From: Promethearchaeota archaeon | GTDB taxonomy: Archaea; Asgardarchaeota; Lokiarchaeia; Sigyniarchaeales; SOKP01 | DNA length: 64,000 nt | Assembly: GCA_019058445.1 (NCBI GenBank) | Contig: JAHPZA010000008.1 | Span: 1-64,000, forward strand | Direction of reading: 5' to 3' | Shown: positions 1 to 49,444 of the stretch, piece after piece | Layout of the letters: every line of letters begins with the position of its first letter | Position numbering within the stretch: position 1 is the first letter of the stretch | Position numbers and translations under genes: made by a program | Notes under the pieces: generated by a model | Seen by the model: the letters and a program-made list of their open reading frames with translations, nothing else | Told to the model about the DNA's origin: nothing | Database searches by the model: none

Positions 1-93
1 GTTGATAATCTTATTTGAAATAAAATGAGTATATTTTTACTTACTTTAATGGTCTAGACATAATTGATAAAAATTAAACTTTCTTAACTTATT

Positions 94-1179
94 TTGACTA
101 ATATGGACTTAATAGATCTTCATAAAATTCAAGGGAGGGCGGAGTTGTATTTAGATTTAGCGGGAGTTATGATCGTTGCTTTAAATAGCGATGGGATAAT
201 TACATTAATGAACAAAAAGGGTTACAGAATGCTTGAATATGAAGATGGGGATTTAGTTGGAAAAAATTGGTTTGAAACTTGTGTTCCAGCCTATTTACGA
301 GACCAAGTATATGACGTATTTAAGAGCTTAATGAGAGGAGAGATTGAACCTGTAGAGTTTTATGAAAATCCTATTATAACTAAAAATAATCACTTAAAAA
401 CTATAGCTTGGCATAATACACTGCTACATGATGATGATGGAAATATTATAGGCACGTTAAGTGCGGGAGAGGATAGCACCAAATTAGATAGAATGAAATC
501 TGAATTACTTGAAAGGATAACCCACGAGTTAAAAACACCTTTGGTTTCAATTAAGGGTTCTACTGAAATAATTTCGAGTTTTTATAAAGAGAAATTAACT
601 CCAAAAATGGTTTCACTATTAGAAATTATCGATCGCAACACATCTCGTCTTGAGAATTTAATCAATAACATTTTGGAAGCATCAAGGCTTGAAATAGGTG
701 TTTTAACGATTAACAAGTCTGGAAATGATTTGTCTCTCTTAATTAAAGAATGTGCAGAAGAGTTGCAAGATATAGCAGAAATTAGGGGGCATACTATTGA
801 GTTAAAATTACATAATGAACTTATTACTCAATTTGATTATCAACGAATAGATAATGTAATGAATGACTTGTTAATTAACGCGATTAAATTTACACCTCTA
901 AATGGAAAAATTCTGATTTCTTCAGAGATTTTAGATGAATATTTTTTAATTTCAATACAAGATAATGGAATTGGCTTCACAGAAGAAGAGAAATCGCAAA
1001 TTTTCAAACGATTTGGAAAAATAGAACGCTATGGGAAAGGGTGGGATGTAGGGATTGAAGGTTCTGGACTTGGATTATATGTTTCAAAAAAAATTATAGA
1101 ATTACATGGCGGAAAGATCTGGGTTGTATCAGAGGGGAGGGATAAAGGTTCAACTTTTAAATTTACTCTACCATATTAA
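94..1179 (+). CDS. PAS-domain sensor histidine kinase
   Basis: N-terminal PAS (DLVGKNWF...NPIITK...IAWHNT), HisKA H-box (THELKTPL), HATPase N/G boxes (NAIKF, DNGIG, GSGLGL, GSTF). TTG start at 94 or ATG at 103. Confidence 0.93.
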   Translation: MTNMDLIDLHKIQGRAELYLDLAGVMIVALNSDGIITLMNKKGYRMLEYEDGDLVGKNWFETCVPAYLRDQVYDVFKSLMRGEIEPVEFYENPIITKNNHLKTIAWHNTLLHDDDGNIIGTLSAGEDSTKLDRMKSELLERITHELKTPLVSIKGSTEIISSFYKEKLTPKMVSLLEIIDRNTSRLENLINNILEASRLEIGVLTINKSGNDLSLLIKECAEELQDIAEIRGHTIELKLHNELITQFDYQRIDNVMNDLLINAIKFTPLNGKILISSEILDEYFLISIQDNGIGFTEEEKSQIFKRFGKIERYGKGWDVGIEGSGLGLYVSKKIIELHGGKIWVVSEGRDKGSTFKFTLPY

Positions 1180-1198
1180 ATCAATTATATATTCTTCT

Positions 1199-2146
1199 TT
1201 ACATTGATAACTTCTTGTTCCATTCTTTATACCTATCAATAAACTCATCTATAAATAAATCTAAAAATGTTGGTGAGATAGCTGAAGAATGAGGTGTTAT
1301 TAAAAGATTTGGACAACCAAGCAAAGGAGAATTTAAATCTAATGGTTCTTTCTTAAACACATCAAGGTAGGCTCCTTTAATTATATTATTTTTAAGCGCA
1401 TATGCTAAATCTTCTTCGTTAATAGCATTTCCTCTTCCAATATTATAAACATAACAAGTTTTTGGTATTAGTTCTAATCTTCTTTTATCTATGAGATTAT
1501 TAGTAGATTTATCTCCCGGTAATGCGAGAATAAGATGGTCTGCTTCAGGTAAAATAGAATCAAGATCATCAATAGTAATGATCTTGTCAGTTTTATCAAA
1601 ATAATCGGGGGGTTTAATTAAAGTTCTTTTCACACCTGTGATTTTAGCTCCAAATGGTTTAGCCAGTTTAGCAATCCAATTTCCAATCTTGCCAAATCCA
1701 AGTATAACAAGATGAGATCCTCTTAAAGTATTGCAATATGGCTCAATTTCTTCCCGTGGCCACAGATATTGATCTTGAAATTGACCAGCGAAATATAATC
1801 CTCTAAAAAATCCCAAAATTGCACCAATTACGTTTTCCGCTATAATTTTTCCGTGAAACGCACCATATGAAATAACAATATCCTCAGGCGCATCTATACT
1901 AAACCAATCCTTTCCTGCGGATGGTGTAGCAATCCATTTCAATTTTGGTGCTAACTCTAGCCATCTTTGGTTAAAAACCCAGACTAAGGCAATATCCGTA
2001 TTTTTTAGATTTGCTTTAAAAGATTGGGAATTATCATATAAAGAGACTGAGCAGTCAGGAAGAACATGCTCTATTTTTTTTTTATGATCTTCAGACGCGT
2101 TAAATGCCTTGACGACAGGATTGGTAAGCCATATACTAATGTGCAT
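1199..2146 (-). CDS. D-isomer-specific 2-hydroxyacid dehydrogenase
   Basis: GFGKIG Rossmann motif, NIGRG, LDVFxxEP, TPHSS catalytic His. Confidence 0.9.
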   Translation of the reverse strand: MHISIWLTNPVVKAFNASEDHKKKIEHVLPDCSVSLYDNSQSFKANLKNTDIALVWVFNQRWLELAPKLKWIATPSAGKDWFSIDAPEDIVISYGAFHGKIIAENVIGAILGFFRGLYFAGQFQDQYLWPREEIEPYCNTLRGSHLVILGFGKIGNWIAKLAKPFGAKITGVKRTLIKPPDYFDKTDKIITIDDLDSILPEADHLILALPGDKSTNNLIDKRRLELIPKTCYVYNIGRGNAINEEDLAYALKNNIIKGAYLDVFKKEPLDLNSPLLGCPNLLITPHSSAISPTFLDLFIDEFIDRYKEWNKKLSM

Positions 2147-2270
2147 ATTAATTGACCTTGAGGGATGTAAATTTTTAATCTGTTAACGTTTTATAATCAT
2201 ATAAAGATTATAAAGGATTTCGATAAAAACGATATATAATATAGTAATTTAAAAAATAAGTTTGGAAATA

Positions 2271-3899
2271 TTACTCTATGCTTTTTAATACTTTTCCTGC
2301 GAATAAATTAGTATTAAACTCATCTTTTTCAAGTACTACTTTCCCGTTTATTAGCACATATTCTATCCCTTCAGATGGTTGGTAAGGATTAGTATATGAT
2401 GCTCGATTATTAACCGTCTGAGGATTGAAAATAGTGATATCTGCAAAGGCACCTTTTTGCAAAATACCGCGATCTTTAATTTGCATTTGTTTTGTGGGTA
2501 AGGAGGTCATTCTTCGAATTGCCTCTTCCTGGGACATAGCTCCTTTCTCTCGCGCAATTTGCCCTAAAACTTTCGTAAAATTCCCATAGGCGGCAGGTGA
2601 AATTGTTTTTAAGCCAGCACCAACGATATCTGTTCCAATGGAGCAATTAGGATCAGAAAGAAGCTCAACCACAAAGTCTTCTGCCATTGGATTATCAAAC
2701 TGACCAGAAATTATAAATAATTTTCCTTCTTCTTCAATAACTAACTCTATAAATGCTTCAATTGGCTCTAATTTTAACTTATCTGCAATATCTTTCAACT
2801 TCATATTTTCAAATCTTTTATTTTTCTTTTGACGAAAACCTGCAAGTATTACGGATGCATTAAAGTCTCGATCCACCCAATATTTATTTTCCCATGGAGG
2901 CCACTTTACCTTAAAAGTTAGCATTTCTTCAATAGCTTGCTTTCGAATTTCAGGTTTTTTAAGCAGATCCAAATTGATCCCCCCGTCAAAAAGCCATGGA
3001 GGAAACCAAGAAAGAACAGTTGTAGAAGAATTTGGCCAAGGGATATTGTCATGATTTATTTTAACTCCACGTTCTATTGCTTCTTGAACTAATTTTAGGG
3101 ATCGTTTTCTAACTCTTCCGATTCCTCCTCCACAATGATGCGAAATGTGTAAAGGAATATCATTTTTTTCCGCGACTTGAATCATTTCTTCAATGGCATC
3201 CGCATATAATTTACTGAAAAGACCTCTTGTATGCGGTACAATTGGCAATTTGTACTCGGTTAAAACAGATGCCAATTCAATTAGTTCCTCTGTATTAGAG
3301 TACATTCCGGGAACATACCCTAAACCAAATGATAAACCAAATGAGCCAGATTCAATAGATTCTTTTAATAATTCTTTCATTTCATTTATTTCTTCGGAAT
3401 TTGCAAAGCGCGCATCAAAGCCCATAACGTTTGTGCGGAGAGTGTTATGACCTGTCAGAATCGCTACATTAAGAGTTTGACCTTTTTTTTCCAAAAAATC
3501 CAAAAATTCTGCCATTGTGGTCCATTCATAATTAAACTCATCATACGGTAAAGCAAAATTCCAATAGGTATTTATTAATTCCTCATATTGATGATTTATG
3601 GGAGCCGGGCTGTAGCCACAATTACCTGAAACCACAGTCGTGACTCCCTGACGTATCCAATTCTCTAGAACGCTAATCTCTTGTGATGATGCAATTATGA
3701 AATCAAGATGAGAATGAACATCTATAAATCCGGGGGCAACAGCCAATCCTTCAGCATCAATAATCATAGATGCTTCTTCTTGATCAAATTTTCCAACATC
3801 TTCAATGCGATCTTTATCTATTAAAACATCAGCTTTAATAGCTGGTGTACCCGTACCATCAATAACTAATCCATTTTTAATTAAAATATCTTTTGCCAT
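2271..3899 (-). CDS. N-acyl-D-amino-acid deacylase (D-aminoacylase) family amidohydrolase
   Basis: IDGTG, PGFIDVHSH, GVTT..GNCG, HTR, SHH, AIRRMTSLP. ATG at 3899 preferred because GAGGAG lies just upstream. Confidence 0.9.
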   Translation of the reverse strand: MAKDILIKNGLVIDGTGTPAIKADVLIDKDRIEDVGKFDQEEASMIIDAEGLAVAPGFIDVHSHLDFIIASSQEISVLENWIRQGVTTVVSGNCGYSPAPINHQYEELINTYWNFALPYDEFNYEWTTMAEFLDFLEKKGQTLNVAILTGHNTLRTNVMGFDARFANSEEINEMKELLKESIESGSFGLSFGLGYVPGMYSNTEELIELASVLTEYKLPIVPHTRGLFSKLYADAIEEMIQVAEKNDIPLHISHHCGGGIGRVRKRSLKLVQEAIERGVKINHDNIPWPNSSTTVLSWFPPWLFDGGINLDLLKKPEIRKQAIEEMLTFKVKWPPWENKYWVDRDFNASVILAGFRQKKNKRFENMKLKDIADKLKLEPIEAFIELVIEEEGKLFIISGQFDNPMAEDFVVELLSDPNCSIGTDIVGAGLKTISPAAYGNFTKVLGQIAREKGAMSQEEAIRRMTSLPTKQMQIKDRGILQKGAFADITIFNPQTVNNRASYTNPYQPSEGIEYVLINGKVVLEKDEFNTNLFAGKVLKSIE

Positions 3900-35394: not shown

Positions 35395-36673
35395 TTATTT
35401 TATATCGCTTAAATCTACACCTTTTGTTTCTGCACCATAAAGAAAATTTAAAGGTATTAGCAAAAATAATAAGAGTGCGTAGATTATAAAAGTAGTTCCT
35501 AACCCATAAAATAAGATTAAAGCACTGGCGATTAAGAGTCCAAACGTGATACCAAGAGCATTTAATAAACTTCTAAATCCTAAAGCTGTGCCTCTTTTCT
35601 CCGTGGGTACCAACTCCAATGTAGTCACTCGAAAAATCCCTAATAATCCCCAATAACATACATGAGTTAATGCATATCCTATTTGAACAAGGATATATGC
35701 ATAGGGAGTGAGAGCTCCCCATACCCACATCATAACTGAAATCGGCATTAATGCGGCCCATATATATAATAAAGGTTTTCTTCCGATTCTATCTGCTAAA
35801 ACACCATTTATGGTATAAGCAACTAAAACTGCCAAGATCGTCCATAAAAAAATCAGAGTAATTTGAGATTGACTAAGACTACCCACATCCGAAATATATT
35901 TTTCGAATAGACCTAAATAGATGGTGCTAGCCCCGTAAATTGCACTCATTATTAAAATAGCGGTGTATGGTTCGATTTTCGGTCTTGAAAATAGATTTTA
36001 CCTCATTTAGAAACGATTCTTCTTTTATTGGTTTCTTAATCCCCTCTTTCTTCATCATTTCATATTTCTCTGTCTCCTTAATCGTTAAAAGTATAATTAT
36101 GCAGAGAGGAATACCTAAGAGAATCGGAAAAACCATCATCATTCGCCAATTTGATGTAGTATCTGTAATATATATACTGCGTAAAATTACCATGATAACA
36201 GCACCCACTAATCCTCCAACTAAAAGAATACTAGTAAAGAACATTCGTTTTTCTTTTTTTGATTCTTCATTTATATAGAGAAACCATATATCGGAAAGTT
36301 GAAAAAAATTCAACAGAAAAACAAAGATTACATATTGGACGTAATTCTGCGAAATAATGATCAATAAGCTAGCAATTGCCATACCAGCCACGGTAATCGC
36401 TAACATAATTTTTCTCCCGATTCTATCCGCCGCATATTGATTAAAAAAGATTAAATAAGCACCTACAGACGCAATACTCCCCCCCAAAGCCATAATGGCA
36501 TTTTGCTCATTTACAGAATAATCACTTAAAAATTCTTCAGCAATTTTAGAAGGAAAAGCCCCCACAACTACAGTTGCATAACTATCAAGAATTTCAACTA
36601 GAATTAATATTATTATCAAATAAATAAAATACGCTTTGGTTCTAGATTTTAAATTAGAATTTGTTGGATCCAT
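35395..36673 (-). pseudogene. Frameshifted MFS transporter (ORFs 35927-36673 and 35395-35949)
   Basis: Each half has one ADRIGRK motif. The frame changes near 35970 (…ENR then PYTAILIMSA…). Confidence 0.85.
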
Positions 36674-39870: not shown

Positions 39871-40968
39871 ATGATATTTGAAAATATACAATTTCCAATA
39901 CAAGGTCCATTAAGAGAATTATTATTAATCTTGGAGTGGCTAATTATTTTATTATTTTTCGAAATAGCTATTGTATTTTATGTAAGAGTTAAAAAGCAAA
40001 AAATCAAAAAACAGCCTAATCAGCAAGAAAAAGGCTATGTAATGATGTTTTTAGGATATTCAATTATGTGGATCTTTTGTATTCTGGGTGATTATGCTGC
40101 AGAGAGTAATACTCTCAGAACCTTTTTTTTAAGTATTGGATTTTTCACAATGATGCTCTGCGGGTTAGTATTTTTATACAGAATGGAAAAATCTGAGATA
40201 TTTTTTAAGAGGTTTCTTTTCTCAAAGATATTTGGTATTGTAATAATATTCATCTTCATTAGTGTGATAATAGGTATTGAATCTCCTCGAATTATAGCTT
40301 TTTTATTATTTTACTCTATTTTCTATCTTTTTATGATAATATATCTCATAAAATTTGCTTCAAATCCCTATATAAAAAGCATCCAAAAAAATTTAACTAT
40401 AATGACTTTAACTCTTTTAGTTGGCTTTACGTGTTTAGGGATAGGATTCTTCTTCACAACCGAATATATATTAAACTATTTTGGTTTGGTTTTCAGAGTT
40501 ATTGGTGATATTATTCAATTAATAGGATTTGTGCTTATTAGTGTTTTTTTCTTTAGTGTACCTTCATTAGAGGAGCATGAATGGAGAAAAAGGATTGATA
40601 AACTTTTTATAATGCTTAAATCGGGAATCTGTATTTATCATAAAGGATTTAAAGAAAAACTTAGCGAAATTGATGAACATTCTACTACGGGAGTTATTAA
40701 GAGTATTAATGATATTCTTAAAGAGCTAACTGATAAAAAAGGTATTTCTATCATTGAAAAGACACATAAGATATTTATAATTCAACCAGGTAAATTTATT
40801 ACTGGTTTGTTAATATGCGATCAAGAGTTAAATTCGCTTAAAGTTCTATTAAACAGGCTAATTGTAAATATTGAAGAAATTTACGCTAAAATTATTGAAG
40901 GTTGGAATTTTGAAATAAAAATATTTGAACCAATTGAAGAAATGGCAAAAGAAATCTTTCTATTTTAA
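39871..40968 (+). CDS. 7TM protein with C-terminal longin/roadblock-like domain
   Basis: Seven TM segments, linker VPSLEEHEW, soluble domain LFIM.KSGICIY...DE...TGVI.SI..IL.E...GKFITGLLI. Confidence 0.72.
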   Translation: MIFENIQFPIQGPLRELLLILEWLIILLFFEIAIVFYVRVKKQKIKKQPNQQEKGYVMMFLGYSIMWIFCILGDYAAESNTLRTFFLSIGFFTMMLCGLVFLYRMEKSEIFFKRFLFSKIFGIVIIFIFISVIIGIESPRIIAFLLFYSIFYLFMIIYLIKFASNPYIKSIQKNLTIMTLTLLVGFTCLGIGFFFTTEYILNYFGLVFRVIGDIIQLIGFVLISVFFFSVPSLEEHEWRKRIDKLFIMLKSGICIYHKGFKEKLSEIDEHSTTGVIKSINDILKELTDKKGISIIEKTHKIFIIQPGKFITGLLICDQELNSLKVLLNRLIVNIEEIYAKIIEGWNFEIKIFEPIEEMAKEIFLF

Positions 40969-40997: not shown

Positions 40998-42815
40998 TTA
41001 TTTTGAATAAGATCCAAATTGTGGGAATTTCTTTATTTGTTCTGATGTGAAAATTGGTCCATCTTTACAAACACATACATCATTATTTTCTCCAATACAG
41101 CATGATCCACATAATCCAACTCCACATTTCATCTTTCTCTCGAGTGAAGCTTGCACTTCTATGTTTTTTGTTTCAGCAATATCTAAAATGCGTTTCATCA
41201 TAACTTCTGGGCCACATGTCAGAATGAGATCGATATTCTCGTTATTAAGGATATCTTCCACGGCATCTGTTACGAAGCATTTTTTACCTCTAGAGCCATC
41301 ATCAGTTGTACACATGGTATTAGGGATCCAATCAATAAGACGATCGGCAAAGATTAGTGAAGCTTCGTCCTTAGCTCCGATTGCGACAAATACATTTTTC
41401 TTATTTTTCTTTAAAGGTTCGATCAAAGTTGTCACAGCTGCAATCCCCACACCACCACCGGTTACCAGAATATTTGTAGCGTCTTCATAATTCCATGCAT
41501 TTCCAAATGGACCTCTTATCCCTATAATATCTCCTGCGTTCTTATTAAACAATTCAGCAGTTCCCTCACCGATTTTTTGCACGGTAATTTCAAGTAAATT
41601 CCCCTCAACATTAGAGATCGACATTGGTAAAAAGTCAACATCGGGTAACCATAGAACTACAAAATTTCCAGGTCTATAGGCTTTTGCAATTCGAGGATTT
41701 CTAATATAAAAACTTTTTAATTCAGGGGAATGATCTACGATTGAATCAATAACTGATATATCAGTTTTACTTCTGGTGATGTCTAATACTAATTCTTCAT
41801 TATCTTTATCAAGTGATTTTTCTTCAAGAATTCCTTTTTCAATTGCTAAATCGAAAATTTGTTTTCCTCTCTGTGTTCTGATAATTGCGGTTTTCCAACC
41901 ATTGTCACTGCCGACCTCTCCTATGGCGATATCTGCAAAAGAAGCGGTGTAATCAGAACACGAAAAACACGCATTTCTAATAGATTTATCATAAAGCTGA
42001 TTAAGTGGAATTTCTTTCACACTTGAATTGATAACTACTTTTAATTTAAAATTATTTCTGTCATGTTCGATGTTCTTAATTTCATTTGGGTTTATATAAT
42101 ACTCCTTAAAGATCTCATCTAATACTTTATTATGGAAAGTACCGAAGCAAAAGGTGCCAATCGCTAAGGAAACTAAGTCGAACGCTTCGAAATCGAAGCG
42201 AGGATGGTTCTGTAATTTTCTAAGCCCTTGAATTTGACAAGGTGTACCTACCACGGCAATATCTACGAATCCCTTATTAATCGCATCTCCTATAAGTGAT
42301 AAGGTAGGACTCTGACTTGGTTTATATCCGATGCTCTTAAATAGTTCCTGTTGGTTTTCGGCAATCATAGGATATGGTTTGAAGTCCTCGTCCTTTCCCG
42401 TAACAATTGATGCATCTATTATCCCCTGTTCCAGTGCGGTCCATAATAATGCGGTAATTGGTCCCGCATCCATCGCCAGTTTTTCCCGTGCTGAATCCGA
42501 AATCTTAACTGATACAATTTTGATAAAGTGACCAAGAATTCTATCATGTTCTTTACCAAATACCCATTTATCCAATAGCGCTGAGGAAATTTTTTCGATT
42601 TCTGTTTTTGGACAAATATTATAACACAATCCAAATCCATCACGACAAGTATTAACATCTTTGCATGAGCCATCTTCAATCGGTACTTCTTTTTCAGAAT
42701 CAAATTTAATATTTGCACAAAAAGCTCCACAAGCCCCGCAATATACACACTTTCCGGTTTTTATGATTTCAGAATCTAATTCTTGCCAACCTTTTTGAAT
42801 TTTATCTATGTAAAT
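40998..42815 (-). CDS. Fusion: ferredoxin + FrhB (F420-binding) + PyrK/NfnA-type FAD/NAD(P)/[2Fe-2S] subunit
   Basis: The frame is open upstream of TTG 42629 to 42836 and encodes CVYCGACGAFC...C...C..LCYNICP. FrhB motifs VGTPCQ, IGTFC, CFSCSD.TA..ADI. PyrK motifs PMSIS, IRGPFGN, GGGVG, TDDGS, CGP, MKCGVGLCGSC..VCKDGP. Start is uncertain (ATT 42815 or ATA 42809). Confidence 0.88.
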   Translation of the reverse strand: MYIDKIQKGWQELDSEIIKTGKCVYCGACGAFCANIKFDSEKEVPIEDGSCKDVNTCRDGFGLCYNICPKTEIEKISSALLDKWVFGKEHDRILGHFIKIVSVKISDSAREKLAMDAGPITALLWTALEQGIIDASIVTGKDEDFKPYPMIAENQQELFKSIGYKPSQSPTLSLIGDAINKGFVDIAVVGTPCQIQGLRKLQNHPRFDFEAFDLVSLAIGTFCFGTFHNKVLDEIFKEYYINPNEIKNIEHDRNNFKLKVVINSSVKEIPLNQLYDKSIRNACFSCSDYTASFADIAIGEVGSDNGWKTAIIRTQRGKQIFDLAIEKGILEEKSLDKDNEELVLDITRSKTDISVIDSIVDHSPELKSFYIRNPRIAKAYRPGNFVVLWLPDVDFLPMSISNVEGNLLEITVQKIGEGTAELFNKNAGDIIGIRGPFGNAWNYEDATNILVTGGGVGIAAVTTLIEPLKKNKKNVFVAIGAKDEASLIFADRLIDWIPNTMCTTDDGSRGKKCFVTDAVEDILNNENIDLILTCGPEVMMKRILDIAETKNIEVQASLERKMKCGVGLCGSCCIGENNDVCVCKDGPIFTSEQIKKFPQFGSYSK

Positions 42816-42816
42816 T

Positions 42817-43416
42817 TTAATTCCCCCCCTCTTCTTTTAATTTTTTAAGAAAATCTTGTGCTTCTAGCTTTCCAAGTTCAAATGCTTCAATATTTTTATC
42901 TAAAGTTGCGCTCGGAACGAATTCTTGAATAGTTTTAAGTGCCGATTCCTCTGAAAAAATTCCCGAAAGCGCTGTAAAAGCACCGAAAAGAATAGTATTA
43001 CCATATACGGTATTTCCAAATTTCTCTAAAGCTAATTTTTGAACCGGAATTGATAATGCTTTAGAGATTCTTTTAGCTGCTCTGAATTTTTGGATGGTTG
43101 AGGGATCCCAGATTAAGAATCCTGAATCTCCTTTTTTCAAACTACTCGGCTTTACATCCTTCGCGGACTCTTCTGAAAGAATTATCAAAAAGTCATATGG
43201 TTCTAAGGCTTTTGGATAATCAATTAATTTCATCTCTTTATCTAAATCAACTACTACTTCAGCCCAACATCGTCCTCCTCTCGCCGCAGCAGAATAAGCT
43301 TCGGTTTGAGTAGCGGCTAAATTTTCATAGAGCGCACTAGCCATTACAATCATCTTACTTAGGGTTATAACTCCTTGACCCCCAAAACCCGCAACTCTAA
43401 TTTCATATCGAGCCAT
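42817..43416 (-). CDS. korC: 2-oxoacid:ferredoxin oxidoreductase gamma subunit
   Basis: EIRVAGFGGQG, Y...ARGG, NTILFG, NIEAF..G. Confidence 0.9.
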   Translation of the reverse strand: MARYEIRVAGFGGQGVITLSKMIVMASALYENLAATQTEAYSAAARGGRCWAEVVVDLDKEMKLIDYPKALEPYDFLIILSEESAKDVKPSSLKKGDSGFLIWDPSTIQKFRAAKRISKALSIPVQKLALEKFGNTVYGNTILFGAFTALSGIFSEESALKTIQEFVPSATLDKNIEAFELGKLEAQDFLKKLKEEGGN

Positions 43417-44333
43417 TATTTATCCCCCATGGCTATTTTTTGAATTCTAGCATATTCTTCAGAATATTCTGGTTTATCTGACTCATATCTGAATTCCCCG
43501 ATAATATATTTATTAAATAACTCCTCCTCAGTCATGAATTTGGCTTGATTTATTCTTACGCTGTTTCTTTTTATCCAATCTACCATTTTTCCACCAGTAT
43601 CCATCTTTTTTCCCTCTAATCCTAAATATTCTGCACCTAAGCTATCTACATTTTTTCTTCCAAAGTAAGTAACACAGGGAGTAACGATTTCAATAACTGA
43701 AGTTCCTTTATGCTTTAAGGCTTTTTTAAAATATTTCATAAAGGTACGGGGATGTGCGACCGTTGTTCTTGCCACGTGAGTAGCTCCTGCAGCTAAAGCA
43801 AGTTTAATACCATCACTTCGATTTTCAAACATAGTATAAGGTGTAGTGCTGCTTTTAGCTCCAAAAAGAGTTGTAGGTGCTCCTTGACCTCCCGTCATTC
43901 CATAAATACTATTATTGAAGATAAATATGACACAATCTAGATTTCTTCGGCATAGATGGATGAAATGATTACCCCCAATGCCTAAACAATCTCCATCACC
44001 TGAAAAGACTATGGGTTTCATATTGGGATTAGCCATTTTCATTCCGGTAGCTACAGCTGGAGCTCTCCCATGAAGTGCTAAAACTTTTTGAGCGTCAGCA
44101 TGAACTAATAGCAAAATCTGAGAATAACAGCCGATTCCAATTACTAACGGATGTAAATTCGGATCTAACTTTAAATCCTCAAAAACACGAGTGTAAATTT
44201 GTCCAATTATCCCATATCCACAACCAGCACAAAATCTCGAAGAATAAGTGTTTAATATGCGACCGGCATATGAATCCAAAACATAAGGATGTTCTGGCTT
44301 CTCACTCGGATACATTGGAAGTTCTCCCGACAT
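43416..44333 (-). CDS. korB: 2-oxoacid:ferredoxin oxidoreductase beta subunit
   Basis: FCAGCG, GIGC, HGRA, GDGD..GIGGNH, NN.IYGMTGGQ.APT, PC; TAATG stop/start coupling. Confidence 0.93.
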   Translation of the reverse strand: MSGELPMYPSEKPEHPYVLDSYAGRILNTYSSRFCAGCGYGIIGQIYTRVFEDLKLDPNLHPLVIGIGCYSQILLLVHADAQKVLALHGRAPAVATGMKMANPNMKPIVFSGDGDCLGIGGNHFIHLCRRNLDCVIFIFNNSIYGMTGGQGAPTTLFGAKSSTTPYTMFENRSDGIKLALAAGATHVARTTVAHPRTFMKYFKKALKHKGTSVIEIVTPCVTYFGRKNVDSLGAEYLGLEGKKMDTGGKMVDWIKRNSVRINQAKFMTEEELFNKYIIGEFRYESDKPEYSEEYARIQKIAMGDK

Positions 44334-45511
44334 TATTGTGCCACCTCCCTTATTGCTTTTAAAATATCATCTGGATGATGAAACACCGCTACTTGAGGAA
44401 CTTTAATGATAGGAGTTCCAAGTGGAGTAACTCGTTCAACTTGCTCCGCAATAATTCCAGTGTAATTTAATTCGGGAACAATAACGGCTTTAGCATTTTT
44501 TACTACTTCTTTTACTTGTTCATCTGGAAAGGGCCAGACAGTAATTAATCTAAAAGCTCCCACTTTAATTCCCTCTTCACGTGCTATTTCAATTGCTCTA
44601 TAGCTTACTCTTACAGGTAGACCATAAGCAATTATAACGATTTCAGCATCATCTAACTTATAATTTTCGGTAAGACAAATCTTATCCTTGTTTGTTTTAA
44701 TTTTATCAACCATAGTCTGTACAAATCGAAAAGGATCAGGTGATAATATTCCTTCGGGACCGTGGGGAGTATGTAAAAACATACCTGGTACATATTCTGT
44801 TCCCATGATAGGTGGTTTAGGAATTACATATTCATTTTTGACTTTGTCTAAGTAGGAAAATACACGAGGACTAATCTCTTCAGATGGAGGGACCTCTCGT
44901 TTTATTACCTTATTTAATATCTCTTCTTTTGGCGGGATATCAACGACTTCATGTAAATGTCCTAAATACGCATCAGATAGGATAAATACAGGGCAACGAT
45001 ATGTCTCAGCATAATTAAATGCAGTGATTGTTAAATCAAAGAGTTCCTGGCAATTCATAGGAGCTAATGCTATTACTTCAAACTCACCATTTCCAGAAAA
45101 ACGTACAAGTCCTAGATCGTTATGATGAGGATCTGTTACGCTTCCAGTACCAGGACCACAGCGTTGTACATCGCAAAAAACAAAAGGAATTTCAAGATTT
45201 GCTGCCATTGAGATAGTTTCTACCATTAATGACAGTCCTGGTCCAGAAGTTGCAGTCATAGCTTTTGCACCGACCAATGATGCGCCCATTACCGAATTAA
45301 TAGATGCTAATTCATCTTCCATTTGCATGCAGACACCCCCGACTTGAGGCAATCTTTTTGCAAGATGTTCAATTACCTCAGTACTTGGAGTTATGGGATA
45401 CCCTCCAAAAAACCTTAAACCAGCGGATATCGCTCCCTCGGCCATAGCTTCATTGCCCATCATTAAATGTCTTCCTGGTTTTAGAAATCTTTTACCATTT
45501 TGATTATTCAT
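44333..45511 (-). CDS. korA: 2-oxoacid:ferredoxin oxidoreductase alpha subunit
   Basis: GNEA.AEGA, GYPITPSTE, QMEDE, ATSGPG, QRCGPGTG. True start is ATG 45511 after SD GAGGTGA (45517-45523). Confidence 0.93.
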   Translation of the reverse strand: MNNQNGKRFLKPGRHLMMGNEAMAEGAISAGLRFFGGYPITPSTEVIEHLAKRLPQVGGVCMQMEDELASINSVMGASLVGAKAMTATSGPGLSLMVETISMAANLEIPFVFCDVQRCGPGTGSVTDPHHNDLGLVRFSGNGEFEVIALAPMNCQELFDLTITAFNYAETYRCPVFILSDAYLGHLHEVVDIPPKEEILNKVIKREVPPSEEISPRVFSYLDKVKNEYVIPKPPIMGTEYVPGMFLHTPHGPEGILSPDPFRFVQTMVDKIKTNKDKICLTENYKLDDAEIVIIAYGLPVRVSYRAIEIAREEGIKVGAFRLITVWPFPDEQVKEVVKNAKAVIVPELNYTGIIAEQVERVTPLGTPIIKVPQVAVFHHPDDILKAIREVAQ

Positions 45512-45524
45512 ATGATTCACCTCT

Positions 45525-45809
45525 TTATGTTTTGGCTTTTCCAGCCGAATTTTCTGTACCCTCTTCAATGATATAGATTGCCCAGTCCGGACAACCAAAT
45601 TCACACCGCCTACACATCGTACAATACTTTTCTTTGCCTTCCTTGACTCTTGGAACATAAGCTATTCGCATATTTAATTCATCTCCGATTTCTAATATAC
45701 CCGTAGGACACACTGCAACACATATTTCACAGCCACCACATCGATCTTTATTAAAAAATAAGGAAAAATTTTTTTCTTTGTTTTCAATTAATTTTGGAAT
45801 TTTAATCAA
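45525..45809 (-). CDS. korD: 2-oxoacid:ferredoxin oxidoreductase delta subunit (2x[4Fe-4S])
   Basis: CGGCEICVAVCP and CTMCRRCEFGCPDWAI. Confidence 0.9.
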   Translation of the reverse strand: MIKIPKLIENKEKNFSLFFNKDRCGGCEICVAVCPTGILEIGDELNMRIAYVPRVKEGKEKYCTMCRRCEFGCPDWAIYIIEEGTENSAGKAKT

Positions 45810-46118: not shown

Positions 46119-46529
46119 ATGAAACGAAAAATTCGTGTCCTCATAGCTAAACCAGGTCTAGACGGCCATGCTCGAGGGGCAAAGGTAGTCTCAATGGCAT
46201 TAAGAGACGCTGGGATGGAAGTAATTTATACAGGACTTCAACAAACACCTGAACAAATAGTCAATGCTGCTTTACAGGAGGATGTTGATTGTATTGGAAT
46301 ATCCATTCTAAGTGGTGCTCATATGACATTAATACCTCGCATCTTAGAATTGATTAAAAAACAAGGATTATCAGATAAATTAATAATCGCAGGAGGCACT
46401 ATTGTTTTAGAAAAAGATATAGAAGCTCTCAAGGAATTGGGAGTTAATGAAATATTCGGTCCAGGAACTCCAACAAAAGAAATTATTGATCATATTAATC
46501 ACTATTTTGGAATAATCAATAAACTTTAA
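46119..46529 (+). CDS. B12-binding small subunit of an acyl-CoA mutase
   Basis: [10 protein letters not shown] (DxHxxG), YTGL.QTPE, SILSGAH, FGPGT. Confidence 0.93.
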
Positions 46530-46561
46530 AATTCAATAAACAACCAAAGAGGCAATAAGAA

Positions 46562-48223
46562 ATGTATGATAAAGAGAAATTAAAAGAAATAAAAAATAAT
46601 GAGGTGTTTTGGAAAAATATAATTGTTCAAAAATGGATTGAAAGATTTCCTGAAATAAAAAATGAATTCAAAACATCTTCAGGTATAATACTTAAAAATG
46701 TCTATACTCCCATAGATATCGTGAATTTGGATTATTCAAATGACCTTTCATTTCCCGCTATTTATCCTTTTACACGTGGAATTTACCCAAATATGTATAG
46801 AGGTCGAATATGGACTATACGTCAAGTAACAGGGTTTGGTAAGGCCGAAGAAACCAGTGAAAGACTTTCTTTTTTAGATAAAGCAGGACAGACAGGTCTA
46901 AATATTGTTTTTGACATGCCTACTCACCATGGGTTGGATTCGGATGATCCTATCGCAGAAGGAGAGGTAGGTAGAGAGGGCGTTGCGATTGATACAATCA
47001 AAGATATGGAAGATCTATTTGATGGAATTCCTCTTGATCAGGTAAGCACTTCACTCATAACGATCGGTGCAGCCCCGATATTACTGGCTATGTATATTGC
47101 AATAGCTGAAAAAAGAGGGATGAAATCTGAAAATTTAGCAGGTACTATTCAGAATGATTCTATTACTGCTTTTGCAGTAACTGGTGCTGAAGGTTCTGGT
47201 ATCAGGCTTGATCCGCTTATAAGACTTGCCGTAGATACTGCTGACTATTGTATCAGATATATGCCAAAGTGGTATCCATTAAGTATTGTAGGATATCATA
47301 TACGTGAAGCTGGAGCTAATGCAGTTCAAGAATTAGCATTTACCTTAGCTAGTGGTATTGCATATGTTAAGGAACTTTTAAAAAAAGGATTGGATATTGA
47401 TGAGATAGGACCAAAGATAACATTCTTCTTTGGTGCGCATAATAATTTTTTCGAAGAAATTGCTAAATTCAGAGCTGCCCGAAGGATGTGGGCTCGAATT
47501 ATGAAGAAATGGTTCCATGCTAAAGATATAAGATCAATGGTTTTAAAATATCACGTTCAAACCTGTGGATGTACCTTAATCGCTCCACAACCAGAAACAA
47601 ATATCATAAGAACCACGATTCAAGCTCTAGCAGCTATTTTAGGTGGAACAAATTCTTTGCATACCAATTCTATGGATGAAGCATTTGCTTTACCCTCAGA
47701 AAAAGCATCGAGAATTGCTGTAAGGACTCAGCAAATTATAGCTCATGAATCAGGAGTAGCTGAAGTATGCGACCCTCTTGGTGGTTCTTATTTCATAGAG
47801 GCACTCACTAATGAAGTCGAAAAAGAGGCTTATAAGTATATCGAAAGAATTGAAGATATGGGTGGGATGATTGAAGCTGTGAAAAAAGAATATATTCAAA
47901 ATGAGGTTGCAAAGTCAGCTTATAAATATCAAAAGGATATAGAAAGCGAAAAAAGTATTGTGGTGGGTTTAAATAAATACCAGATTGATGAGAAATTAGA
48001 ACTTAACCTCTTTAAAATAGGACGCAATTATGAAATACGGCAAATTGAAAATTTACAAAAGATTAGAAAAACAAGAGATAATCTTAAAGTTAAAGAAGTT
48101 TTATCTGAAATTAGTGATGGATTGCATAAAGGTGAAAATCTTATGCCGCTGCTAATTAAAGCAGTCAAAACCTATGCAACAATAGGAGAACTTATGGGAA
48201 TATTAAAGAAGGATTTAATTTAA
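46562..48223 (+). CDS. Acyl-CoA mutase large subunit (methylmalonyl-CoA mutase family, atypical specificity residues)
   Basis: YPFTRG.YP.MYRG..WTIRQ, FDMPT, GTIQND, GYHIREAG, EIAKFRAARR, NSLHTNS.DEA, DPLGGSY. Confidence 0.93.
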   Translation: MYDKEKLKEIKNNEVFWKNIIVQKWIERFPEIKNEFKTSSGIILKNVYTPIDIVNLDYSNDLSFPAIYPFTRGIYPNMYRGRIWTIRQVTGFGKAEETSERLSFLDKAGQTGLNIVFDMPTHHGLDSDDPIAEGEVGREGVAIDTIKDMEDLFDGIPLDQVSTSLITIGAAPILLAMYIAIAEKRGMKSENLAGTIQNDSITAFAVTGAEGSGIRLDPLIRLAVDTADYCIRYMPKWYPLSIVGYHIREAGANAVQELAFTLASGIAYVKELLKKGLDIDEIGPKITFFFGAHNNFFEEIAKFRAARRMWARIMKKWFHAKDIRSMVLKYHVQTCGCTLIAPQPETNIIRTTIQALAAILGGTNSLHTNSMDEAFALPSEKASRIAVRTQQIIAHESGVAEVCDPLGGSYFIEALTNEVEKEAYKYIERIEDMGGMIEAVKKEYIQNEVAKSAYKYQKDIESEKSIVVGLNKYQIDEKLELNLFKIGRNYEIRQIENLQKIRKTRDNLKVKEVLSEISDGLHKGENLMPLLIKAVKTYATIGELMGILKKDLI

Positions 48224-48265: not shown

Positions 48266-49444
48266 TTACAATTTCTTATATTCTTCTAGTATTTTTTTAG
48301 CAACATCATCAGTGTTGCTGTATTTTCCCTCTTTTCTAAAATTTAGAGGTACGGCATCTGCTGGTAAAAACATCCAATTCTTTTCAACATCAAGTCCATG
48401 AGCTAATGTATTTTCTAAGGCATGCATGAGTTTTTTAGATTCTGTTTCAAATCCTAAGTAATCAAGCATCAAGGTAGCTGAAACTATCGCTGCTGCAGGG
48501 TTTGCGATTTTTTGACCTGCTATATCAGGAGCAGAACCATGAGTAGGTTCGAAATATGGGATTTTTGGACCATAAACACCAGAGCCAGCAACACCCAAAC
48601 CTCCCACAATTTGAGCCGCTTCATCGCTCAAAATATCCCCCATCATATTGGGAATTACTATAGTATCGTGATAGTCAGGAAATCTTATTAACCGGGCCGC
48701 AAAATCATCCACAATATAAGTCTCTACTTTTAAATCGGGAAATTCGGTCTCGGCTATTTTTTTTATTCTTTTAATGAACATACCGTCTTGCTGGCGAAAA
48801 ATATTAGGTTTGCAGACGATTTCAAGCAATCCTTTTCCAACACCCTCATTTTTGCGTTTCATACACAGCTCGCAAGCTGCTCGACCTACTCTGTCAGTCG
48901 CGTGGGGGGATACCACCCTTAGGCCATAAATTGCCTTTTCAGTCCATCTTTCAATCTCTGGTTTATAGATTAATCCTTTTTTAATTAATTTTGTAATTTT
49001 TCCTTCTTTCCCTACTGCTGCATATGCGCCTTGCGTACATTCTCTTACAAACACATAATCAATGTTTTCTACCAATTCTGGTTTGAGATTGGTATCCATT
49101 CCTTTAAAATATTTGATAGGCCTTATATTAGCATAATTTCCAAGCCCCCAACGCAAATATGCAATGACTTGTGTTGCTGTTTCGTGCGTTGCTCCAAATA
49201 AAACTGCATCGCTATTATTTACTGCTTCTTTTGATTCAGGAGGAAAAGCGTTACCATGTGTTTGTATAGCACTCTCTCCACAAGGCATACTTTTGATTTC
49301 TAAACCATTAATTTTCATTCCCTCCAAAATAAAAACAGTCGCGTTGACAACCGTTGGTCCGATACCGTCTCCCCCCAGAGCTGTGACAACTTTTTTTGAT
49401 TTATCAATATTTGGGCATTTAAGCACGCTTCTGTATCGTTCCAT
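48266..49444 (-). CDS. Isocitrate/isopropylmalate dehydrogenase family protein
   Basis: GGDGIGP, YANIRP, VRE, K.N, VDD, N..GDILSD, FEPTHGSAPDIAG..IANP. Confidence 0.92.
   Translation of the reverse strand: MERYRSVLKCPNIDKSKKVVTALGGDGIGPTVVNATVFILEGMKINGLEIKSMPCGESAIQTHGNAFPPESKEAVNNSDAVLFGATHETATQVIAYLRWGLGNYANIRPIKYFKGMDTNLKPELVENIDYVFVRECTQGAYAAVGKEGKITKLIKKGLIYKPEIERWTEKAIYGLRVVSPHATDRVGRAACELCMKRKNEGVGKGLLEIVCKPNIFRQQDGMFIKRIKKIAETEFPDLKVETYIVDDFAARLIRFPDYHDTIVIPNMMGDILSDEAAQIVGGLGVAGSGVYGPKIPYFEPTHGSAPDIAGQKIANPAAAIVSATLMLDYLGFETESKKLMHALENTLAHGLDVEKNWMFLPADAVPLNFRKEGKYSNTDDVAKKILEEYKKL

Follow-up and report, generated by a model that had tools for sequence, protein, structure and literature searches.

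A kor operon ending in a ferredoxin-FrhB-PyrK fusion gene in Lokiarchaeia, and its possible role in passing 2-oxoacid electrons to F420 and NAD(P)

Organization of the kor operon

A stretch of 64,000 nucleotides from a Lokiarchaeial genome (Promethearchaeota), hereafter the window, carries on its minus strand an operon for a four-subunit 2-oxoacid:ferredoxin oxidoreductase (OFOR; here Kor). The last gene of this operon encodes a fusion of a ferredoxin-like domain, an FrhB-type F420-reductase module and a PyrK-type flavoprotein module, which on balance we regard as a probable electron-output subunit of Kor. Asgard archaea are thought to live by the syntrophic breakdown of amino acids and organic acids, with the oxidation of 2-oxoacids as the main source of low-potential electrons. 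Models of Asgard energy metabolism, and with them metabolic models of the origin of eukaryotes, depend on how these electrons are divided between ferredoxin, F420, NAD(P) and hydrogen or formate. The host assembly comprises 4.6 Mb in 10 contigs and is 92.6% complete; the window belongs to its contig C8 and has a G+C content of ~32%.

The open reading frame (ORF) list and direct reading revealed five packed genes in the order korD, korA, korB, korC and then the fusion frame. korD (45525-45809) encodes a delta subunit of 94 amino acids with two CxxCxxCxxxCP motifs for two [4Fe-4S] clusters and with OorD/PorD_KorD-type matches; its TTG start is preceded by the Shine-Dalgarno (SD)-like motif AACGGAG, and its eight Cys residues are invariant across 28 orthologues. 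korA (44333-45511) encodes an alpha subunit of 392 amino acids with POR_N and PFOR_II domains, starting at the ATG at 45511 behind the SD motif GAGGTGA; a 441-amino-acid version in the ORF list was rejected because its start had been placed too early. korB (43416-44333) encodes a beta subunit of 305 amino acids that binds thiamine pyrophosphate (TPP; TPP_enzyme_C domain), and korC (42817-43416) a gamma subunit of 199 amino acids with a POR domain. As the original prediction had described, the genes are tightly packed, with one-base overlaps (TAATG) between the korA stop and the korB start and between the korB stop and the korC start. The fusion frame runs from 42815 to 41001, or to 40998 with its stop codon (40998-41000), which marks the end of the operon; a convergent gene ending at 40968 lies 30 nt away.

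All four subunits (delta-alpha-beta-gamma) of the oxidoreductase are thus present with the expected Pfam and NCBIfam domains and Fe-S motifs. Kor/Oor-type models score best for KorDABC, and all of the scores lie under the equivalog cut-offs (score/cut-off in bits: KorA, NF006412, 395.8/411; KorB, 196/364; KorC, 122/235; KorD, 62/93). The window Kor is one of several such enzymes in this genome, in which we counted seven OFOR alpha-type loci.

Start codon of the fusion gene

The frame of the fusion gene contains no ATG, GTG or TTG between the upstream stop codon and a TTG at 42629, that is, none before its first Fe-S motif. The gene caller starts at this TTG and yields a product of 543 amino acids that lacks the first Fe-S motif, and the same truncation occurs in a second metagenome-assembled genome (MAG). 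The 62 codons 5' of the TTG carry invariant Cys residues of the ferredoxin domain. One base after the korC stop lies an ATT codon (42813-42815, minus strand), at the position where homologues carry Met; these homologues are 605-606 amino acids long, and their N-terminal Met-Tyr-Ile aligns with ATT-TAC-ATA in the window. The final part of korC contains an SD-like sequence, GAGGGGGGG (42823-42831, minus strand), separated from the ATT by 7 nt. The second MAG (loci L025/L026; L025 259-264; 87% protein identity) keeps the ATT, and its G-run is interrupted and reads GAGGGGGAG.

Because the ATT is kept in the second MAG and the genes of other genomes are separate and start with Met, initiation at ATT is a better explanation than a sequencing error, and the sequences argue for ATT as the initiation codon of the fusion gene. 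A joining of korC to the fusion through a +1 slip on the G7 run was also considered but rejected, in view of the separate homologous genes with their own Met and the retention of the ATT in the second MAG despite its interrupted G-run. The product length of ~605 amino acids given in the original prediction therefore holds if translation starts at ATT 42815-42813, whereas the first conventional codon (TTG 42629) leaves only 543 amino acids.

Domains, ligands and fold of the fusion protein

The protein consists of three modules, as had been read from the sequence before, and this reading is borne out by the Pfam domains and by eight Cys residues within residues 23-68. Residues 1-92 (42540-42815, minus strand) form a ferredoxin-like bridge domain, with Cys 23, 26, 29 and 33 and Cys 51, 57, 64 and 68 as ligands of two [4Fe-4S] clusters. 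Residues 93-350 (41766-42539, minus strand) form the FrhB-type F420-reductase module (PF04422, PF04432), with FAD and one [4Fe-4S] cluster on Cys 193, 223, 283 and 286. Residues 351-605 (41001-41765, minus strand) form the PyrK-type module, with an FAD barrel (PMS, 397-399), an NAD(P) site (GGGxG, 453-457) and an all-Cys [2Fe-2S] site (Cys 564, 569, 572 and 583). The matches are FrhB_FdhB_N at 105-175 (49.4 bits against a Pfam gathering score of 22), FrhB_FdhB_C at 186-337 (129.6 bits against 23.3), NAD_binding_1 at 453-542 and DHODB_Fe-S_bind at 559-594.

No variation was observed in any of the 16 Cys ligands, in GGGxG or in the FAD motif, either among 31 close fusions or in a 28-row set that includes fusions of 42% identity. 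Within the family, the fusion proteins are 67-87% identical, which points to strong purifying selection. An Asp-Glu pair after the second Rossmann strand (GAK-D-E) is invariant in the main fusion cluster and weakly hints at a preference for NAD over NADP.

An AlphaFold (AF2) model based on an alignment of 150 sequences (85 fusions, 32 stand-alone ferredoxin (Fd)-FrhB proteins and 33 stand-alone PyrKs) folds the fusion confidently as one body (pLDDT 93.9, pTM 0.92); a model from the 31 close fusions alone had a pLDDT of 58 and was discarded. When the model was compared with solved structures using Foldseek, no solved chain spanned both halves.

Conservation and distribution of the operon

The association of kor with the fusion is highly conserved. 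Wherever 3 kb or more of DNA is available upstream (~29 distinct loci), the fusion is immediately preceded by korD-A-B-C, and in shorter loci korC adjoins the fusion, together with korB and korA where space permits. The synteny holds for the divergent fusions at L058 and L018/19 (42% identical) and at L106 (36%, cut by the contig end). The spacing between korC and the fusion ranges from an overlap to ~10 nt across the loci and is 1 nt in the window. The sole exception is L035, in which an ORF of 1036 amino acids with a LAGLIDADG_3 domain (13-3123, plus strand) lies directly upstream of korC, in the place expected for korB, at the contig start, as the result of either an insertion or a misassembly.

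After clustering of 1.8 billion proteins at 50%, only three clusters contained the fusion, and the other matches were stand-alone Fd-FrhB or PyrK proteins. Among 301 sampled genomes of the phylum, a full-length fusion was found in 42 of the 68 genomes (~60%) of the window's GTDB family, in addition to the window genome itself, and no other family in this sample had a full-length match at E <= 1e-60. Presence and absence in MAGs are subject to incompleteness. Rare divergent copies occur in other Promethearchaeota MAGs. Several MAGs to which one submitter gave the names Thorarchaeota, Hodarchaeota or Hermodarchaeota (L028, L033, L035, L046, L011-L013) carry kor-fusion operons that are 67-75% identical to that of the window; these names look unreliable, being at odds with the GTDB-based tally, which places the fusion in one family.

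In the searchable full-text literature, outside of which most subscription journals lie, we found no description of an FrhB-PyrK fusion or of an F420-linked OFOR in Asgard archaea.

The N-terminal half and F420-reductase subunits

The closest solved relative of residues 12-365 is the zeta subunit of carbon monoxide dehydrogenase (CODH; 8riu_B), with a phmmer E value of 5e-54, 29% identity and a Foldseek TM of 0.83 (by target, as are the TM values for FwdI and FrhB below; rmsd 2.8 A over 354 columns). FwdI of the formyl-methanofuran dehydrogenase Fwd (8rja_E; 4e-44, TM 0.81) and FrhB (3zfs_C; 4e-38, TM 0.80-0.82) follow, and then Fsr and FdhB. Across the proven F420 enzymes, the phmmer E values range from 5e-54 to 3e-31, in contrast to only 2e-13 for HCAR (5dqr), which does not use F420. 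Residues 1-92 of the fusion align with the ferredoxin domain (residues 1-83) of zeta, and the Cys residues of the N-terminal half align with those of zeta and FrhB. In its layout, this half is FpoF-like, with matches to NF040616 and NF006808 over residues 16-331. The fusion is not FrhB proper: it scores below the cut-off of TIGR03289 (170 against 331.5 bits), no frhA or frhG adjoins it, and the NiFe large subunits of this genome are found only on contig C3, away from its FrhB genes.

Zeta and FwdI of Ca. Ethanoperedens thermophilum have been shown by crystal structures and assays to be bound add-on subunits, each with a ferredoxin domain that carries two [4Fe-4S] clusters and an F420-reductase domain that carries one [4Fe-4S] cluster and FAD, and they route the oxidation of CO or formyl-methanofuran to F420 in place of ferredoxin (Lemaire, Wegener and Wagner 2024, PMC11493965). 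The fusion resembles zeta and FwdI (8RIU chain B, 8RJA chain E) in the combination of these two domains and in sharing an operon with a low-potential oxidoreductase of the ferredoxin type. The hosts differ, being CODH and Fwd of Methanosarcinales-related archaea in one case and a 2-oxoacid oxidoreductase of an Asgard archaeon, known here from its genes, in the other. Moreover, zeta ends in a short C-terminal dimerisation tail, whereas the fusion has a complete 255-residue PyrK-type FAD/NAD(P)/[2Fe-2S] module in its place. A second redox module on the same chain is also present in Fsr (7NP8), the sulfite reductase that depends on F420, in which an FrhB-type unit and a ferredoxin domain are fused to a siroheme sulfite reductase rather than to an FNR/PyrK-type NAD(P) flavoprotein. 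Therefore, the remark in the original prediction that it knew of no characterised enzyme with this architecture remains valid for the whole chain but not for its N-terminal 350 residues, for which zeta and FwdI are characterised structural precedents.

A related gene arrangement has been noted in ANME-1, in which FrhB6 paralogues adjoin PFOR genes and a dedicated F420-reducing system for multicarbon breakdown has been proposed (Chadwick et al. 2022, PMC9012536). As in the window, an FrhB-family gene is clustered there with a 2-oxoacid:ferredoxin oxidoreductase; the ANME-1 case is a genomic observation from another phylum, with another OFOR type and with no mention of a PyrK module.

The C-terminal half compared with PyrK and NfnA

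All of the fusion proteins have been named 'dihydroorotate dehydrogenase electron transfer subunit' by the Prokaryotic Genome Annotation Pipeline (PGAP), because the C-terminal half exceeds the cut-off of the NCBIfam PyrK equivalog NF000796 (250 against 224 bits). This half reaches 40% identity to the separate PyrK of the genome, has PyrK as a structural neighbour (TM 0.85, compared with 0.81 for the NfnI small subunit) and shares with PyrK, the subunit of dihydroorotate dehydrogenase B (1EP3, 5KSW), the FAD barrel, the NAD site and the all-Cys [2Fe-2S] site. Its nearest stand-alone relatives are also genuine PyrKs; in 22 of their 43 loci, pyrD lies no more than 300 nt away. These similarities are what would be expected if the fusion served as the PyrK of dihydroorotate dehydrogenase B, as its name implies. 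However, whereas PyrK partners PyrD, the fusion never adjoins pyrD and follows korC instead; it has an Fd-FrhB part of 350 additional residues; and contig C1 of the genome encodes a canonical pyrD-pyrK pair of overlapping genes (PyrK 270 bits, PyrD 358 bits), for which a search had been suggested at the outset. We therefore give this role hardly any credence, and the PGAP name is very probably wrong for the fusion protein. In the original prediction, service as a plain PyrK for PyrD was named as one outcome that would overturn the proposed routing of electrons; given the separate pyrD-pyrK operon and the synteny with kor, it is very unlikely.

By sequence, the best PDB matches of the C-terminal half are the NfnA proteins of T. 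maritima (E 3e-36) and P. furiosus. In fold and in the order of its modules, the half corresponds to NfnA (4YLF, 5JCA; TM 0.78-0.81), and both NfnAB and the fusion pair a PyrK-type unit with an Fe-S flavoprotein bearing a second hydride site. This partner is NfnB/GltD-type in NfnAB and FrhB-type in the fusion. The [2Fe-2S] ligands also differ: both NfnA proteins have Asp at the position of C564, so that the fusion, with four Cys ligands, resembles PyrK and the sulfhydrogenase gamma subunit and not the Asp/3Cys type of bifurcating NfnA.

F420 and electron-carrier genes in the genome

F420 is probably available in this organism. A check for F420 biosynthesis genes, also proposed earlier, found cofH (463 bits against a cut-off of 374) with a cofG-like gene beside it, as well as cofD (306 bits against 257), in the genome; of 71 family genomes, 59 carry cofH. 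The genome also encodes an F420-dependent Mtd, together with several Mer-like genes of the luciferase family that score under the cut-off.

In the same 92.6%-complete genome, searches for Fno (TIGR01915), for NfnA and for an NfnB/GltD-type protein found none of these; for the last, the best match to TIGR01316 was 45.7 bits against a cut-off of 471.75, and the other DHODB-type [2Fe-2S] proteins are only PyrK and a HydG/AsrB-like protein. Because neither Fno nor an NfnB/GltD-type protein was found, F420, NAD(P) and electrons at the ferredoxin level must be connected in some other way. The earlier statement that the window holds no pyrD, nfnB or hydrogenase partner for the fusion agrees with these findings, as pyrD lies on another contig and two NiFe hydrogenase large subunits lie on contig C3, neither of them near any FrhB gene. 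Elsewhere in the family, only two genera have an Fno-like gene, and its score of 77-97 bits is below the cut-off. The idea that this gene and the fusion are complementary within the family was refuted, as genus g2 often has both and genus g3 has neither.

Three further FrhB-type genes were observed in the genome. On contig C3 (~504938-507975; L004 3938-6975, plus strand), an overlapping operon encodes a HydB/AsrA-like Fe-S protein (351 amino acids), a HydG/AsrB-like FAD/NAD(P)/[2Fe-2S] protein (279 amino acids) and an Fd-FrhB protein (418 amino acids); this unfused pairing of FrhB with a PyrK-family protein may represent an F420:NAD(P) oxidoreductase that is built differently. On contig C10 (~604823-605932; L023 6824-7933, plus strand), a stand-alone Fd-FrhB protein of 369 amino acids with an FpoF-like layout is encoded among glycoside hydrolase genes. 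The remaining one, a divergent FrhB_C protein of 312 amino acids and the fourth of the FrhB family, is located on contig C6 (L024 5617-6555).

A putative electron-output subunit of Kor

By analogy with zeta, FwdI and the PyrK family, we propose that the fusion is a dedicated fifth component of Kor, an electron-output subunit that would replace free ferredoxin and reduce F420 and/or NAD(P)+, and we consider this the probable role, if by a modest measure. An output of Kor to F420 and/or NAD(P) is suggested by the kor-fusion synteny, the relationship to F420-reductase add-on subunits, the intact ligands, the F420 genes and the separate pyrD-pyrK pair, and the same observations support the earlier idea that electrons from 2-oxoacid oxidation are routed to these carriers. 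Further points in favour are the strong conservation of the protein, the confident single-body model, the failure to find Fno or an NfnB/GltD-type protein, and the precedent of FrhB paralogues beside PFOR in ANME-1. The attachment of the fusion to Kor, its acceptors and the direction of electron flow would likewise follow those of its relatives.

In this scheme, the 2-oxoacid would be decarboxylated with CoA at the TPP of KorAB, and the electrons would pass from the KorB cluster through the two KorD clusters to the two [4Fe-4S] clusters of the fusion's ferredoxin domain, and from there to the [4Fe-4S] cluster and the FAD of the FrhB module, which would transfer a hydride to F420. The PyrK module, with its [2Fe-2S] cluster, FAD and Rossmann site on the same chain, would exchange a hydride with NAD(P)+. 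With a donor at about -500 mV and acceptors at about -340/-320 mV, the net reaction, 2-oxoacid:F420 and/or 2-oxoacid:NAD(P)+ oxidoreduction, would be strongly exergonic, and the same wire would also permit the interconversion of F420H2 and NAD(P)H. The operon thus suggests that, for one 2-oxoacid, one Lokiarchaeial family charges F420 and/or NAD(P) directly and leaves free ferredoxin out. It would widen the principle of the F420-reductase add-on from CODH and Fwd to the OFOR family, with a second hydride site that is without precedent in that principle.

Several observations weigh against this proposal. The N-terminal half falls under the curated equivalog cut-offs of both FrhB and FpoF, FrhB-family members such as HCAR act on other substrates, and F420 binding cannot be read from sequence. 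About 40% of the sampled family genomes lack the operon, some of them 100% complete, so that the operon is accessory. In addition, a simple dual-acceptor model leaves two hydride sites of nearly equal potential unexplained. The predicted complex of KorA, KorB, KorD and residues 1-95 of the fusion, with ipSAE values of 0.00-0.01, is neutral on binding.

The family scores and the example of HCAR would fit an FrhB module that uses another acceptor or donor or that serves as an Fe-S/FAD relay, in which case the enzyme would be a 2-oxoacid:NAD(P)+ oxidoreductase resembling phenylglyoxylate:NAD+ oxidoreductase. The latter enzyme, PadEFGHI of Azoarcus/Aromatoleum, adds a fifth, FAD-containing subunit to a four-subunit OFOR core and reduces NAD+ directly; this subunit belongs to another family than the fusion, and the enzyme is not known to have an FrhB module or to involve F420. 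The NCBIfam models of PadE, PadG and PadI match KorC, KorA and KorB weakly. The similarity of the module to proven F420 enzymes, far higher than that to HCAR, and the presence of F420 biosynthesis genes and of F420-dependent Mtd in the genome make such a loss of F420 chemistry very doubtful.

It is also conceivable that the fusion is a free, soluble enzyme that is merely co-expressed with Kor. Unattached to Kor, it would oxidise the reduced ferredoxin that Kor makes and reduce F420 and/or NAD(P)+. Soluble FpoF is reported to take electrons from free reduced ferredoxin, and the N-terminal half has an FpoF-like layout; a shared operon is by itself no proof of a complex, and the genome also encodes a stand-alone Fd-FrhB. 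However, the genes are tightly coupled for translation, the gene order persists in fusions of only 36-42% identity even as the flanking genes change, and the closest solved relatives are tightly bound subunits (PMC11493965). We therefore think it improbable that the fusion acts apart from Kor.

The two hydride sites raise another alternative, namely Nfn-like confurcation or bifurcation with F420, in which the FAD of the FrhB module would act as the bifurcating flavin between the [2Fe-2S] cluster of the PyrK module and the [4Fe-4S] chain to Kor. In the forward direction, low-potential electrons from the 2-oxoacid and NADH would jointly reduce two F420; in reverse, two F420H2 would reduce NAD+ and drive the reductive carboxylation of acyl-CoA. 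The set of modules parallels that of NfnAB, with its PyrK-family subunit and a flavoprotein that has two or three [4Fe-4S] clusters and a hydride site; NfnA is the best PDB sequence match of the C-terminal half; and NfnB, NfnA and Fno were not found in the genome. The main point in its favour is that there is otherwise little reason for a single Fe-S wire next to a -500 mV donor to bear two hydride sites of similar potential. On the other hand, the all-Cys [2Fe-2S] site differs from that of both solved NfnA proteins, the nearest stand-alone relatives of the C-terminal half are true PyrKs, and we know of no FrhB-family flavin that bifurcates. In zeta, FwdI, Fsr and Frh, the FrhB-type flavin is the end of a linear wire (PMC11493965). 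Coupling of this kind is thus rather unlikely, in either direction. If it did occur, the fusion would be a new flavin-based enzyme in which F420 takes the role that NADPH has in Nfn, and it would provide a ferredoxin-free link of 2-oxoacid metabolism, NAD and the F420-dependent one-carbon steps of the methyl branch in these Asgard archaea.

The substrate of Kor and neighbouring genes

As judged from the genes, the substrate of Kor may be a 2-oxoacid of the Kor/Oor clade, possibly 2-oxoglutarate or a chain-elongated 2-oxoacid. Genes near the kor operon are of LeuA/LeuCD/LeuB-AksF type, unlike the classical enzymes of the tricarboxylic acid cycle. In other genomes, the upstream flank often contains a LeuCD/homoaconitase-type dehydratase pair, an isopropylmalate dehydrogenase (IPMDH)/AksF-type dehydrogenase, isopropylmalate synthase (IPMS)-type synthases or an MTTB methyltransferase, and the downstream flank contains an EamA transporter and an ABC ATPase; the operon in the window is flanked by ilvD, an acyl-CoA mutase pair and an Iso_dh gene. 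Across genomes, these flanking genes (LeuCD/Hac-like, IPMDH/AksF-like, IPMS-like, MTTB, EamA and acyl-CoA mutase) vary and do not single out a substrate.

Just upstream of korD, the plus strand encodes a B12-binding small subunit and the large subunit of an acyl-CoA mutase (46119-48223); the large subunit scores 683 bits with TIGR00641 and 539 bits with the methylmalonyl-CoA mutase equivalog, for which the cut-off is 876. Also upstream of korD, an IPMDH/homoisocitrate-dehydrogenase-like gene is located on the minus strand (48266-49444). On the other side of the operon, two overlapping minus-strand ORFs of 184 and 248 amino acids (35395-35949 and 35927-36673) both match MFS_1 and Sugar_tr and are possibly a single transporter gene broken by a frameshift.

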